A DNA stretch of 64,000 nt from Alphaproteobacteria bacterium (GTDB taxonomy: Bacteria > Pseudomonadota > Alphaproteobacteria > UBA9219), in assembly GCA_033763555.1 (NCBI GenBank), contig JANRKK010000008.1, positions 29 to 64,028 of the forward strand. The letters run 5' to 3'. The position numbers and the translations under genes are program-made. Shown here in pieces: positions 104-2,833 of this stretch. The notes under the pieces were generated by a model, which worked only from the letters and a program-made list of their open reading frames with translations, did no database searches and was not told where the DNA came from. How positions within the stretch are numbered: the stretch's first letter is position 1; each line of letters opens with the position of its first letter.

Positions 104-150
104 CGTTATCCCCGCCAAGGCGCGGGTAGCGCTTGCGTTCAGGATTCCAT
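104..150 (+). repeat. Degenerate single arm of CGTC-type REP palindrome
   Basis: cgttatccccgccaaggcgcggg...ggattccat resembles the arm cgtcatgcccgcgaaggcgggcatccat at 51627; its end overlaps the ccmF ATG. Confidence 0.45.
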
Positions 151-2833
151 GTTCATCGAAACCGGGCACTTCGCCCTTATCCTCGCCCTGCTGGTCGCCG
201 CGGTTCAGGCGTTTATCGGCTTGCGCGACTTACGATCAGATCGTCATAAGTCCTCCCCCCTTGGGGGGAGGGTTGGGTGGGGGGTCTCTGAAGAACACGA
301 CCCCCCATCTGCGAAAACCAAGAGCTTACTTCGTAAGCTCAGGTTTTCGCGTCTTCCCCCCAAAGGAAGAAGACGGGATTCTGTCAATACGAGAGACATA
401 TCAGATACTCAAATATGGATAGCTGCCGCGCGAAGGACGGCGCGTGCCCAATGCGCCTTGATCGCCATCGCTTTTGTGGCCCTCGCGCATGCCTATGTGA
501 CCAGTGATTTTTCCGTCCTCAACGTCGCGCAGAACAGCCATATCGACAAGCCGCTGCTGTATAAAATCTCGGGCGTGTGGGGCAATCATGAGGGCTCCAT
601 GCTGCTGTGGGTTCTGGTGCTGGCGCTTTATGGCGCGGCGCTGGCATTGTTCGGCAAAAAAATGCCGACCTCTCTGCAGATGCGCGCGCTGGGCGTGCAG
701 GGTATTTTATCGGCGGTCTTCCTGCTGTTCATCCTGCTGACCTCGAACCCTTTCATGCGGCTCAACCCCGCGCCCCTGAACGGGCAAGGGCTGAACCCGA
801 TTTTGCAGGATCCCGGCCTCGCCTTTCATCCGCCCTGCCTTTATCTCGGCTATGTCGGTTTTTCGCTGGTCTTCGCGCTGGCTGTTGCGGCACTGATGGA
901 AGGCAGGGTGGATTCCACATGGGCACGCGCGGTACGGCCCTGGGCGCTGGCGGCCTGGAGCTTCCTCACGCTCGGTATCGGGCTGGGTTCCTGGTGGGCC
1001 TATTACACGCTGGGCTGGGGCGGCTGGTGGTACTGGGACCCGGTTGAAAATGCGTCTTTCATCCCGTGGCTGGCGGGCACGGCATTGCTGCACAGCCTGA
1101 TCGTTCTGGAAAAACGCGATGTATTGAAAGCCTGGACAGTCCTTCTGGCCATCATCACATTCTCGCTGTCGCTGATCGGTACCTTTCTTGTGCGTTCGGG
1201 TGTGCTGACTTCGGTGCACAGCTTCGCGTCCGACCCGGCGCGCGGCGTGTTCATCCTCGGCATGATCGTGGCGGTGACGGGCAGTGCGTTGCTGCTGTTT
1301 CTCCTGCGCGCGCCAACGATGAAATCCGGTGCGGATTTTGCGCCGCTCTCCCGCGAGGGTAGTTTGCTATTGAATAATGTGTTGCTCAGCACGGCGGCGG
1401 GAACGGTGTTGCTCGGCACCCTTTATCCGCTGTTCCTTGATGCGCTGAGCCTCGGCAAGGTCTCGGTCGGGCCGCCTTATTTCAACCGGACTTTCGGGCC
1501 GCTGATGCTGCCGTTGATCATCGCGATGGGTATCGGGCCGATGCTGGGCTGGAAAAAAGCCGATGCGCGTGGATTGGTTCAGCGTCTGGGTTTTGCGTTG
1601 CTGGCGGCTCTGACCGTGATGGCTGCAACATGGATTTGGGCAGGCGGTTCAGCGAAAATCTTGATCACAGCGGCGGGTATGGGACTGGCGGCATGGCTGG
1701 GTACAGCGACCTTCCTGACATGGGCCGAGCGTATCAGCCTGTTCCGCACGGGTTTTGGTGAAGCACTGCGCAATGCTGCGCAGCTGCCACTGTCGGCCTA
1801 TGGCATGCTAGCGGCGCATGCGGGCATGGCGGTGCTGCTGGCGGGGATTACAGGCTCGCTCGGCTGGCAGGTGGAAAAAATCCAAATGATGCGCGTCGGC
1901 GAAAGCGTGGATGTCGCCACCTACCGCCTGAAGCTAGAAAAGGTCGAGGAAAATATCCAGGGCCCCAACTATACCGCCACACGCGCGGCGTTCGTTGCGA
2001 CCAAGAATGGCGGTTTTGTTGCGCGCCTGACACCGGAACGGCGAATGTTCACTATGCCGCCACAGCTTGTCACCGATGCCGCCATCCATACCAATTTCAT
2101 CGGCGATCTCTATGCCGTGATCGGTGAAGCGGATGGCAAGGGTAACTATGTCACGCGGCTTTACTACAACCCACTGGTGCCATGGATTTTCTTTGGCGTC
2201 GGATTGATGGCGCTGGGGGGCACGCTGGCGCTCGCGGGACGCCGGAAGAATTCCGGTGCAACGGAAAAACAGGAAGCGGCACGATCAGGCAAAACATCGC
2301 GCCGTGCGTTTTTGATACCTTTGATGGCATTTGCCGTTTTGGCCGGGTTTTTTGCCAATCGCCTGTGGCTGGCTGAAAAAGGCTTTGCTCCGGATAAAAT
2401 TCCATCGGCGCTGATCGGCAAGCCGGTACCGGTTTTCGATCTGCCATCCCTGACAGGCGGCCACGTAACGGCGGCGAGCTTCAAGGGCAAAGTTACGCTG
2501 GTGAATTTCTTTGCTTCCTGGTGCGTGCCGTGCCGGGCGGAGCATGAGATTCTTTCCGGCCTGAAAAGCGTGAAAAGCCTGACGCTGGTCGGCATTAATT
2601 ACAAGGACAGGCCGGAACAGGCGCAGGCCTGGCTGAGAAAATCCGGCAATCCATTCAGCGCCATCGCCAACGACCGCGAAGGCACAGCGGCGATTGATTT
2701 CGGCGTCTATGGCATTCCTGAAAGCTTCCTGATTGATCGGCAAGGCATCATCCGTTTTCGGCAAGCCGGCATCCTGACACCCGAAGCCGTGCAGAACAAA
2801 ATCCTTCCACTCGTGAAGGAGTTGAACCGATGA
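149..2833 (+). CDS. ccmF: Cytochrome c heme lyase CcmF fused to C-terminal CcmG/DsbE thioredoxin
   Basis: WGNHEGSMLLW, HPP, WGGWWYWDPVEN (WWD motif), SVHSFA; then a TM anchor and VNFFASWCVPCRAEH...GVYGIPESF thioredoxin, all in one 894-aa frame. Confidence 0.95.
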   Translation: MFIETGHFALILALLVAAVQAFIGLRDLRSDRHKSSPLGGRVGWGVSEEHDPPSAKTKSLLRKLRFSRLPPKGRRRDSVNTRDISDTQIWIAAARRTARAQCALIAIAFVALAHAYVTSDFSVLNVAQNSHIDKPLLYKISGVWGNHEGSMLLWVLVLALYGAALALFGKKMPTSLQMRALGVQGILSAVFLLFILLTSNPFMRLNPAPLNGQGLNPILQDPGLAFHPPCLYLGYVGFSLVFALAVAALMEGRVDSTWARAVRPWALAAWSFLTLGIGLGSWWAYYTLGWGGWWYWDPVENASFIPWLAGTALLHSLIVLEKRDVLKAWTVLLAIITFSLSLIGTFLVRSGVLTSVHSFASDPARGVFILGMIVAVTGSALLLFLLRAPTMKSGADFAPLSREGSLLLNNVLLSTAAGTVLLGTLYPLFLDALSLGKVSVGPPYFNRTFGPLMLPLIIAMGIGPMLGWKKADARGLVQRLGFALLAALTVMAATWIWAGGSAKILITAAGMGLAAWLGTATFLTWAERISLFRTGFGEALRNAAQLPLSAYGMLAAHAGMAVLLAGITGSLGWQVEKIQMMRVGESVDVATYRLKLEKVEENIQGPNYTATRAAFVATKNGGFVARLTPERRMFTMPPQLVTDAAIHTNFIGDLYAVIGEADGKGNYVTRLYYNPLVPWIFFGVGLMALGGTLALAGRRKNSGATEKQEAARSGKTSRRAFLIPLMAFAVLAGFFANRLWLAEKGFAPDKIPSALIGKPVPVFDLPSLTGGHVTAASFKGKVTLVNFFASWCVPCRAEHEILSGLKSVKSLTLVGINYKDRPEQAQAWLRKSGNPFSAIANDREGTAAIDFGVYGIPESFLIDRQGIIRFRQAGILTPEAVQNKILPLVKELNR
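251..374 (+). repeat. Multi-hairpin palindromic element (RPE-like, family B) inserted in frame in ccmF
   Basis: Hairpins ctcccccc-tt-ggggggag, ggggggtc..gacccccc, gcgaaaacc..ggttttcgc (311-350), gtcttc..gaagac; same architecture as the intergenic copy at 46092-46233. Confidence 0.8.

Follow-up and report, generated by a model that had tools for sequence, protein, structure and literature searches.

Some MITEs form in-frame fusions with host ORFs, and palindromic insertions that preserve the reading frame of their host gene are, to our knowledge, textbook material for Rickettsia only. The Rickettsia palindromic elements, RPE-1 to RPE-10, are described as in-frame palindromic repeats of about 100-150 bp (PMC10969869, PMC3733652). 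In E. coli, the TM (TMECO) motif is described as 37 nt long, always intergenic and without a link to mobile elements, and the second loop of BoxC/PIT/TM motifs as either T-T-A (type A) or C-C-G (type B) (Holder et al. 2015, PMC4666352). CGTC-tagged REPs are portrayed by Di Nocera et al. (2013, PMC3733652) as a CGTC tag followed by an 8-9-bp stem whose first two pairs are A/T, a 4-5-nt loop and a CCA-like tail; the same article names Micavibrio aeruginosavorus as a host of CGTC-1 repeats and uses the term REPtron where inverted copies of a repeat enclose the gene presumed to move them.

Here we report an in-frame insertion in the ccmF gene of a Micavibrio-like bacterium, the repeat family to which it belongs, the recurrence of that family in frame in other genes, its motif architecture and its association with genes encoding DUF559 nucleases. 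We consider it probable that the ccmF insert is a translated copy of a triplex-motif repeat family, which behaves like the RPEs and is likely a miniature of a DUF559 cassette, a reading that joins three topics treated apart in the literature: RPE-like repeats, BoxC/PIT/TM motifs and the uncharacterised DUF559 nuclease family.

A 165-bp in-frame insertion in ccmF

The genome under study (G000) is a GC-rich, Micavibrio-like 1.97-Mb draft of 46 contigs, 100% complete by marker genes, and the window analysed here is a stretch of 64,000 nucleotides from one of its contigs. Near the start of the window, a single open frame of 894 codons (149-2833, forward strand) encodes CcmF (Cytochrom_C_asm and CcmF_C domains) followed by a CcmG-like thioredoxin domain. 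Between its first two transmembrane helices (TM1 and TM2), this protein was suspected, from a sequence-only reading, to carry roughly 55 extra residues. Alignment to 12 CcmF orthologues, drawn from 15 relatives with a CcmF-sized match (G003, G013 and G014 were left out), put the number at exactly 55, with 55 gap columns at the insert position in 12/12 orthologues, corresponding to a 165-bp (55-codon) in-frame insertion at 242-406 on the forward strand. Upon deletion of the insertion from CcmF, the TM1-TM2 loop equalled that of the orthologues in length; the orthologues' loop is short, rather than equally long and free of palindromes. The ccmF site is also empty in a genome of the same genus (G001), in which the element query found no match at E<=0.001 and DUF559 no match at E<=1e-5. 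The copy would have entered ccmF after the lineage split from its sister species, and would owe its survival there to a length divisible by three, a frame free of stops and the shortness of the TM1-TM2 loop.

The heptamer ATCAGAT occurs at the insertion boundary as a 7-bp direct repeat on the forward strand, its left copy at 235-241 and its right copy, 165 bp away, at 400-406, which makes it a candidate target-site duplication or microhomology; because of this repeat, the limits of the insertion may be given as 242-406 or, equally, as 235-399. Of the 165 bp inserted, 40 nt do not belong to the conserved core and recur only in part in other copies. An A/T-rich left flank (242-250, forward strand; CGTCATAAG) is partly common to the copy on contig C15 and to some copies of genome G015, and the first ~10-14 nt of the right flank (376-399, forward strand) resemble the flanks of the C15 copy and of the RdgB copy of genome G051. 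The extent of 251-374 given in the sequence-only reading holds for the conserved repeat core, the whole insertion being 165 bp (242-406) and not 124 bp long.

An inverted pair of triplex-type motifs

Folded as single-stranded DNA, positions 240-385 formed the four consecutive hairpins that had been read from the letters (252-259/264-271, 277-286/299-308, 311-329/333-350 and 352-357/365-370), with a minimum free energy of -42.8 kcal/mol, compared to -21.1 +/- 2.7 in 200 shuffles (z -8.17; 0/200 as good). These hairpins were resolved into two modules by a motif test that requires, from 5' to 3', a pyrimidine arm, a purine arm and a reverse-Hoogsteen (G-rich) arm, with the triads G*G:C, A*A:T and T*A:T allowed. 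Module A, a class II triplex-type motif at 251-284 on the forward strand, comprises a pyrimidine arm (251-260), a loop (261-262), a purine arm (263-272), a second loop (273-274) and a G-rich third strand (275-284), with 9/10 Watson-Crick pairs and 10/10 allowed triads; hairpin 1 corresponds to its first two arms. Module B (298-375) is a triplex-type motif on the reverse strand, whose Watson-Crick arms form hairpin 4 and whose second loop holds hairpin 3, and which is decayed in the ccmF copy (8-nt arms, 7/8 pairs, 7/8 triads). Hairpin 2 (277-308, forward strand) joins the two modules, the G-rich third strand of module A pairing with the C-rich complement of the third strand of module B; compared with C15, the nearest copy, the ccmF copy has 12 extra nt in the loop of this hairpin. 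Hairpin 3 (311-350, forward strand) is the gcgaaaac...gttttcgc stem-loop and shows compensatory changes between copies; across 70 copies, such changes were found at 12/22 predicted pairs of hairpins 3 and 4.

One forward and one reverse-strand triplex-type motif were present in 7/7 full copies of the element in G000, while any such motif was present in 3/200 shuffles. The arms of the forward motif measure 8-10 nt with at most one mismatch per arm, those of the reverse-strand motif 8-12 nt, and the two motifs of a composite are imperfect inverted repeats of one another. The second loop of module B spans 37-43 nt. G000 further contains 12 single motifs, 34-36 nt in length, whose second loop reads TTA in five, TT or TTT in five, CTA in one and TCA in one, CCG being found in none. 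By its sequence, then, each full copy combines, in inverted orientation, two class II intrastrand-triplex motifs of BoxC/PIT/TM type, the triplex itself being a prediction. The likeness to the motifs described by Holder et al. (PMC4666352) extends to the order of the pyrimidine, purine and G-rich reverse-Hoogsteen arms and to closely spaced inverted pairs; the length is similar but not the same (34-36 nt here versus 37 nt), and a T-T-A second loop is found in several copies only. Unlike the E. coli TM motifs as they are described there, the motifs reported here occur as inverted pairs in frame inside genes, carry a nested hairpin in one motif and, as single motifs, bracket DUF559 genes. A blastn search of E. 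coli genomes with the element gave no match.

Further copies and their in-frame recurrence

An nhmmer profile built from the copies detected 7 full-length copies in G000 (E-values 1e-28 to 4e-31), with cores of 113-136 bp. One of these seven composites, a low copy number, lies in a conserved gene (ccmF) and one in a poorly conserved ORF. A free copy of the same architecture, placed earlier at 46092-46233, was located by profile, fold and motif scan at 46097-46232 on the forward strand, in a divergent intergenic region; it aligns to the insert in the same orientation, and its DNA (46085-46245 folded) adopts the same hairpin layout (z -4.61; 0/200 shuffles as good). Beyond G000, the element DNA query matched 29/55 genomes of the taxonomic family, and when one genome per species was scanned with a module-B pattern, 82 stretches came up, most of them from Micavibrio-like, Rhodospirillaceae-labelled and Phyllobacteriaceae MAGs. 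The profile confirmed 78/80 of the listed pattern-scan loci; the two loci with no profile match, L115 (a Sulfitobacter MAG) and L129 (a Prevotella MAG), were taken as chance pattern matches. An Rfam search of six copy-bearing loci at E<=1 gave only two weak matches, below the gathering score and both outside the copies, and the insert peptide matched no family of Pfam or NCBIfam at E<=1.

In related genomes, the same repeat family was found in frame in five other genes, mostly in one reading frame: RdgB/Ham1, whose domain is split in two by 47 additional residues, a UbiG-like methyltransferase (+41 aa), DapF (+47 aa), RNase R (+43 aa) and an AddB-like protein (L120; about +50 aa), which lacks a Pfam family and was counted as a gene on tblastn evidence. 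In all five cases, G000's own orthologue has an empty site. No direct repeat was seen at the assigned boundaries of the six other intragenic copies, these boundaries having been placed only approximately, by comparison with empty sites in distant orthologues. Long stop-free frames run through the element at 10 pattern-scan loci, 6 of them without a Pfam family and 5 of these 6 not counted as genes, and at 8 loci in relatives, 4 of them without a family. Locus L106, where the element lies upstream of the aligned aminotransferase part, was not counted as an in-frame case. When 1.84 billion proteins were searched with a peptide profile, 34 matched, and a Pfam scan of 10 of them identified hosts that include an alpha/beta hydrolase, PrmA, Ham1, Smr and Hda; 13 columns of the peptide alignment (A2) are invariant.

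The five in-frame insertions with empty G000 sites, together with the further hosts retrieved by the peptide profile, support the proposal made from the letters alone, namely that this is an RPE-like, peptide-donating repeat family, as far as sequence comparison can tell. Like the RPEs as they are described (PMC10969869, PMC3733652), the element is palindromic, about 100-150 bp long, found in frame in unrelated housekeeping genes, to which it adds a conserved peptide, and found in intergenic copies too; it likewise has no transposase within it and an alphaproteobacterial host with a small genome. It differs from the RPEs, whose hosts are obligate intracellular bacteria, in its GC-rich, Micavibrio-like and free-living or predatory host, its low copy number (7), its inverted pair of triplex-type motifs and its candidate partner gene, DUF559. 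The likeness is one of behaviour only. RPE behaviour is hereby extended to a GC-rich Micavibrio-like lineage, with empty-site controls for six conserved genes. For annotation, this carries a warning, as such inserts make loops longer in conserved proteins of membranes and metabolism and also yield spurious ORFs.

Association of the motifs with DUF559 nuclease genes

The sequence-only reading had also proposed a search for a nuclease or transposase gene flanked by the repeat, and such genes were indeed found, DUF559 genes being bracketed by the same motif. Both DUF559 genes of G000 (2/2) are flanked by inverted module A, such that 4 of its 12 single motifs bracket its only 2 DUF559 genes, which lie at C30:23519-24010 on the minus strand and at C43:44812-45324 on the plus strand. 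Among 31 DUF559 loci across the taxonomic family, 15 have single motifs on both sides, 3 have one on one side and another 3 have module B on both sides; of the remaining DUF559 loci that were examined, 5/6 carry other flanking inverted repeats of 39-99 nt. Most DUF559 loci of many genera have this inverted layout, their arms lying 400-530 nt apart. Across 55 genomes, the element and DUF559 occur together in 25, the element only in 4, DUF559 only in 8 and neither in 18. When mapped on the DUF559 tree, the types of end cluster (9 changes versus 14.3 in shuffled data, with 0/200 shuffles as low), for which shared descent alone may be the explanation. Finally, module A of the ccmF copy is 89% identical over 46 nt to one end of the DUF559 cassette on contig C43.

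Since inverted single motifs flank DUF559 genes, the ccmF insert resembles a TM-DUF559-TM cassette reduced to a miniature without its gene. The family would thus likely derive from a cassette in which two inverted motifs surround the gene of a DUF559 (Vsr-like PD-(D/E)xK) nuclease, and such an origin would make this nuclease the candidate enzyme that moves the ends. This arrangement recalls MITEs, in that a short element without genes has ends that are inverted copies of those of a longer, gene-carrying unit, with a possible 7-bp target duplication at ccmF. It departs from MITEs in that the longer unit, the DUF559 cassette, is without a known transposase, and in that the target duplication is seen at one site only, the other 6 boundaries being approximate. 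Literature searches, judged from titles and abstracts, turned up nothing that links DUF559 to repeats or intrastrand triplexes to an endonuclease, and the supplements of Di Nocera et al. (2013) and Holder et al. (2015) might list related elements.

An unlikely alternative is that the host's own recombination and repair machinery, working on unstable triplex or hairpin DNA (by gene conversion, replication slippage or microhomology-mediated insertion), spreads or maintains the copies with no dedicated enzyme involved, and that DUF559 genes merely tend to settle beside the motifs, or that the motifs serve them as terminators or insulators. On this view, microhomology could account for the 7-bp direct repeat at ccmF; the host gene of the C15 copy is without about 120 residues of TPR repeats at the position of the element; Holder et al. 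(PMC4666352), in their account of E. coli, tie TM motifs to genomic instability and none of them to mobile elements; and elements are present in 4 genomes in which DUF559 gave no match at E<=1e-5, among them G058, which is 100% complete and holds 18 copies of the element. This account is countered by the specificity of the pairing, which draws a third of the single motifs of G000 to its only two DUF559 genes, by the recurrence of one inverted geometry in most DUF559 loci of many genera and by the way in which the types of end follow nuclease clades.

We favor the reading in which the insert is a miniature of the DUF559 cassette. A bolder generalization, which we advance tentatively and find slightly harder to believe than to doubt, is that inverted pairs of BoxC/PIT/TM motifs are non-autonomous miniatures of widespread, undescribed, selfish DUF559 cassettes, able, like the RPEs, to settle in frame in essential genes. 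If true, the long-unexplained BoxC/PIT repeats would gain a partner enzyme as well as a way of spreading, and, should the DUF559 link be causal, the origin and spread of a class of repeats present in hundreds of bacterial genomes could be tested with one small enzyme and a 35-nt oligonucleotide.

Predicted translation of the insert and the state of CcmF

The start codon of ccmF, preceded 5 nt upstream by an AGGA Shine-Dalgarno-like box, and the conserved TM1 both lie upstream of the insert and in the same open frame, which speaks against a translation start downstream of it. In an AlphaFold model built from 12 sequences, TM1 spans residues 2-35 and TM2 residues 81-118, with pLDDT values of 73-93 per 10-residue block over these helices, except for residues 21-30 (75) and 31-40 (44), and the insert has a pLDDT of 35-55 and includes one short helix. 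When translated, the insert would contribute 55 mostly disordered residues with a net charge of +8, a low pLDDT being no proof of disorder. Counting helices back from the external WWD site places the TM1-TM2 loop, by inference, in the cytoplasm. We infer that the insert is translated within CcmF and tolerated there.

That the insert is real but CcmF non-working, either as a decaying pseudogene or as a shorter protein that starts downstream of the insert, is in our view decidedly improbable. In its favor, the pathway is dispensable in this group, given that 6/31 relatives gave zero match to a CcmF-CcmG query, 5 of these 6 being 97-100% complete, and selection on ccmF could therefore be relaxed; moreover, hairpin 4 has decayed in the ccmF copy relative to the C15 copy, and so the insertion is not very recent. 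Yet the 894-codon frame is still open, an alignment with 11 orthologues shows that G000 keeps the residues invariant in CcmF, among them the WWD motif and H227, and its TM1 is still close to that of the orthologues. A downstream start is further disfavored by the sequence itself, in which no in-frame ATG occurs between the insert and TM2 and in-frame TTG or GTG codons occur only within TM2, and by the inverted topology that a loss of TM1 would bring about. The downstream ccmH and ccmI genes are intact, and five genes elsewhere keep their frame through the same element.

Comparison with REP elements

That a RAYT (Y1, IS200/IS605-like) transposase moves the repeat, and that the repeat would thus be an ordinary element of the REP/BIME type, appears very improbable. 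As in REPs and BIMEs, the element is short, palindromic, clustered and modular, a GTAG precedes the C15 copy, and intragenic REPs are known (PMC3733652); the likeness to GTAG/CGTC-tagged REPs, as described in that article, covers short palindromes, head-to-head dimers, an occasional intragenic position and a REPtron-type layout. However, Y1_Tnp (PF01797) was not found in G000 by a search that matched 6/14 control genomes, the GTAG tag precedes only the C15 copy, other copies having TAAG, AAAT or GGTG, and the motif is of the three-strand triplex type rather than a simple REP hairpin. Hairpin 4 starts with CGTC and then TT in the ccmF and C15 copies only (GCTTCC or GCGTCC in the others), and has loops of 3-4 nt and no CCA tail. 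Unlike CGTC-1 as described (PMC3733652), the stems of the ccmF element are C-rich/G-rich runs of 8-12 bp joined by a third strand, and no CCA tail follows. The REPtron layout, in turn, differs in the flanked gene, which is here of a PD-(D/E)xK-type nuclease and not of a Y1 transposase, no RAYT having been found in G000.

Least credible of all is an assembly artefact that misplaced a repeat into ccmF, since, although G000 is a 46-contig draft, only 130 nt separate its C15 copy from the end of a contig and assemblies often break at repeats, the insert is interior to a 64-kb contig with unique flanks and a unique 12-nt difference from its nearest copy, the frame is kept exactly and comparable in-frame insertions are seen, in independent assemblies, in five other genes.

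As a separate observation, a CGTC-1-like dimer is present elsewhere in the window, at 2848-2874 and 2920-2946.

A structured repeat was inserted into ccmF

CcmF-sized matches were found in 15 relatives of the host genome (G000; the window is its C8:29-64028), and N-termini were compared in 12 of them, namely 11 loci and the same-genus G001, with G003, G013 and G014 left out. The sequence-only reading had noticed some 55 extra residues between the first two transmembrane helices of CcmF (TM1 and TM2), and this was borne out: G000 CcmF holds exactly 55 extra residues in this loop, which is short in 12/12 orthologues (11/11 without G001, the same-genus empty site, which is an unpublished genome). 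The 7-bp sequence ATCAGAT occurs as a direct repeat at window 235-241 and 400-406, a spacing of 165 bp, and excising 242-406 restores the loop to orthologue length; a rough hand calculation puts the probability of such a 7-mer at ~0.002, given a gap length of 165 set by the protein alignment and ~30 placements. The limits first proposed for the element, 251-374, match the conserved repeat core (251-375), but the insertion itself spans 242-406. The flanks of the core, 9 nt on the left and ~10-14 nt on the right, are partly common to the copy on contig C15, the nearest one (84% identity), and to a copy in the RdgB gene of genome G051, leaving ~17 nt of the insertion over. The palindromic insert in CcmF is thus confirmed with its limits corrected, a structured repeat having entered ccmF in this lineage.

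The insert would be translated, as the conserved TM1 lies upstream in the same frame and in-frame alternative starts occur only within TM2. An AlphaFold model of CcmF (12-sequence alignment, mean pLDDT 70.8, pTM 0.72) placed helices at residues 2-35, 81-118, 147-171, 174-199, 227-251 and 256-288; the WWD motif comes next, at 290-301. Since the WWD/P-His site of CcmF is external according to the accessible text of PMC10663686, counting the helices back puts the loop (residues 36-80) inside, and the insert is predicted to be cytoplasmic; its 14 Lys/Arg versus 6 Asp/Glu fit the positive-inside rule. The insert had a pLDDT of 35-55 and one short helix (residues 55-64), compared to 73-93 in 10-residue blocks of TM1 and TM2, the C-terminal part of TM1 being the exception (75 at residues 21-30, 44 at 31-40), a pattern weakly suggestive of a tolerated loop.

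The element is a pair of triplex-type motifs

Folded as single-stranded DNA, window 240-385 forms four consecutive hairpins, as had been read from the sequence, with an MFE of -42.8 kcal/mol, compared to -21.1 +/- 2.7 in shuffles (z -8.2, 0/200 as good). The same architecture had been noted free at 46092-46233, and indeed 46085-46245 showed the same hairpin layout (z -4.6) and aligned with the ccmF copy in the same orientation.

We then applied, by script, the motif definition of Holder et al. 2015, as given in the available part of PMC4666352, to the seven G000 copies. All seven carry a forward class II motif consisting of a pyrimidine arm, a purine arm and a G-rich third strand (arms 8-10 nt, second loop 1-4 nt; module A, in the ccmF copy at window 251-284, + strand), and all seven carry a reverse-strand motif (arms 8-12 nt; module B, in the ccmF copy at 298-375, - strand) whose second loop of 37-43 nt encloses hairpin 3; any such motif occurred in only 3/200 shuffles of the ccmF copy. 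The Watson-Crick arms of the two motifs make up hairpins 1 and 4, their third strands pair to form hairpin 2, and the nested stem-loop is hairpin 3. In the ccmF copy, the reverse motif is decayed (7/8 pairs, 7/8 triads) compared to that of the C15 copy (11/12 and 11/12). When 70 of 120 collected copies were entered into a count of compensatory changes, 12 of the 22 pairs predicted for hairpins 3 and 4 were found to still pair via two-sided changes, and the structure is therefore maintained beyond sequence alone.

In two copies from other genomes, in DapF (L118:461-601) and in an AddB-like protein (L120:4518-4679), module A has an extra hairpin nested between purine arm and third strand, which suggests that loop 2 of the motifs accepts nested stem-loops in general.

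The family recurs in frame within conserved genes

A nhmmer profile search of G000 yielded the further copies that the sequence-only reading had called for, seven full ones in total (E-values 1e-28 to 4e-31): C8:279-403 (in ccmF), C8:46125-46260, C15:67033-67145, C43:74552-74672, C6:2795-2909, C39:63135-63258 and C42:2872-2991. For five of the seven, no stop-free frame of at least 100 codons runs through the copy. On C15, the copy sits in antisense orientation within a 250-codon frame, which is cut by the end of the contig and resumes on C27, the two ends (C15:66526-67275 and C27:11920-12198) overlapping by 78 nt. The joined product comprises a membrane anchor, a Pro/Ala-rich linker and C-terminal TPRs, and is similar to 315-411-residue proteins of relatives; compared to that of G017, it is without ~120 residues of TPRs exactly at the antisense element, making this probably a second, less clean intragenic copy.

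A 176-nt element query matched 29 of the 55 genomes of the taxonomic family, and its halves, module A (query positions 14-55) and module B (64-139), were often found singly. Scanning one genome per prokaryote species for the module-B pattern gave 82 stretches, in MAGs labelled uncultured Rhodospirillaceae, Micavibrio, 'Bdellovibrionales', Alphaproteobacteria/Rhodospirillales and Phyllobacteriaceae; profiles confirmed 78 of the 80 loci listed, with 104 matches, 29 of them full length. Frames running through the element were assessed by Pfam and by tblastn against G000 as an empty-site control, which confirmed five further in-frame insertions: in RdgB/Ham1 of G051, where the domain is split in two (L042, +47 residues), a UbiG-like methyltransferase (L074, +41), RNase R, between CSD2 and RNB (L080, +43), DapF (L118, +47) and the AddB-like protein (L120, ~+50). 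The family therefore lies repeatedly in frame within conserved genes, which supports the initial likening to Rickettsia palindromic elements (RPEs).

Module B enters in the same frame (..PSPAKTK.LLRK.KF.LPLPQGER) in each of the six sense insertions, that in CcmF among them; the RNase R insertion shifts frame midway through the element. Stops are usually present in one of the three sense frames, so this same-frame use amounts to 6/6 in one of two open frames. The in-frame bias would be explained if the only survivors were insertions that keep the frame, bring no stops and fall in permissive loops. A peptide-profile search of 1.84 billion representative proteins, biased to one frame and thus unusable for frame counts, gave 34 matches at E<=0.001; Pfam families were found in 8/10 of those scanned, the hosts being alpha/beta hydrolase, PrmA, Ham1, Smr, Hda, APH, a Peptidase_S74 protein and a DUF559 protein, in which the insert peptide is a C-terminal extension.

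Several loci and genomes showed other arrangements. At L068 (G017:C70; contamination of G017 ~9%), a 3-isopropylmalate dehydrogenase frame (522-1583, minus strand) has a Pfam Iso_dh match ending at profile position 267/348, beyond which it meets two copies of module A and a stop, so the repeats may have disrupted or frame-shifted this gene. In Phyllobacterium/Phyllobacteriaceae MAGs (L079, L081, L099, L112, L123, L126, L128, L136, L145), module B occurs with a hairpin 3 whose inner stem differs, and the family therefore crosses alphaproteobacterial orders. Genome G015 holds dense module-A arrays with a spacing of ~80-160 bp and at least 38 matches (C49:27286-27764, C8:45972-46203, C5:63448-63653), and G058, 100% complete, has 18 element matches and no DUF559 match at E<=1e-5.

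Many DUF559 nuclease genes lie between inverted motifs

A nuclease gene flanked by the repeat had also been proposed as something to look for, and both DUF559 (PF04480) genes of G000 (117 and 110 bits) proved to be bracketed by inverted module-A copies. These two cassettes and a gene-less dimer on C23 account for 6/12 single motifs of G000, and over 46 nt the ccmF module A shares 89% identity with one of the ends of the C43 cassette. DUF559 is present in 33/55 family genomes. Module A lies within 250 bp on both sides at 15/31 DUF559 loci and on one side at 3/31, module B on both sides at three more (L158, L162, L169), and five of six loci checked among the remainder have other inverted repeats, likewise C-rich/G-rich in style (39-99 nt, 419-529 nt apart). 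Among these genomes, whose relatedness makes them non-independent, 25 have both element and DUF559, 4 the element only, 8 DUF559 only and 18 neither. End types are clustered on a tree of the 31 nucleases (9 changes, versus 14.3 on average after shuffling; 0/200 shuffles were as low), which may partly be shared descent.

In the unpublished G001, neither the element query nor DUF559 had a match, and the 845-bp segment that holds the C30 cassette of G000 (C30:23533-24377; L153 734-1578) is absent. Beyond the cassette, this segment comprises ~310 bp in which there is a small Cys-rich ORF (minus strand, 85-codon frame), so the cassette may have come or gone together with extra cargo. A Y1 (RAYT) transposase was not found in G000.

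Judged from these arrangements, the composite element would be a gene-less derivative of a cassette in which two triplex motifs flank DUF559, and the nuclease would act on the flanking motifs, providing a concrete candidate enzyme for the spread of the element. At the level of titles and abstracts, no published link between DUF559 and flanking repeats was found.

Relation to known repeats and the ccmF neighborhood

In behaviour, the ccmF element resembles RPEs as these are described in the accessible part of PMC10969869, and by sequence architecture it is a motif pair of the BoxC/PIT/TM class, which in E. coli is reported to be always intergenic and without link to mobile elements (PMC4666352, available text). 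The host is Micavibrio-like, judging by the labels of related MAGs and by its genome (1,967,135 bp, 46 contigs, 55.3% GC). For Micavibrio aeruginosavorus, the accessible text of PMC3189940 puts repetitive DNA at just 0.10% and reports no mobile elements, under a repeat criterion of at least 50 bp at >=97% identity, which the present family would escape. Intragenic REPs have been published, as has a CGTC-1 family of that species (PMC3733652), and comparison with CGTC-1 as described in the available portion of that paper suggests that the ccmF element is not a CGTC-1 unit.

In the window, ccmF and a ccmG-like thioredoxin gene form a single open frame (149-2833, + strand, ATG 149, 894 codons) with an AGGA box 5 nt 5' of the ATG and Pfam matches to Cytochrom_C_asm (residues 144-350), CcmF_C (370-698) and a thioredoxin-like domain (756-877). 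Relatives G005, G017, G025 and G009 have ccmG separate from ccmF, overlapping or just downstream, and the frame is either a true CcmF-CcmG fusion, which the topology would allow if CcmF ends in the cytoplasm, or the result of a lost stop or sequencing error.

Between the stop of this frame and ccmH lies a head-to-head dimer of CGTC-1-type REPs (2848-2874 and 2920-2946), each with a CGTC tag, an 8-bp stem starting with AT, a 4-nt loop and a CCA tail. The listed ccmH ORF (ATG 2830) runs through both units, and an in-frame ATG at 2950, within the second REP, yields a normal signal peptide; Pfam CcmH starts at residue 46 of the long ORF, and ATG 2950 appears the likelier start.
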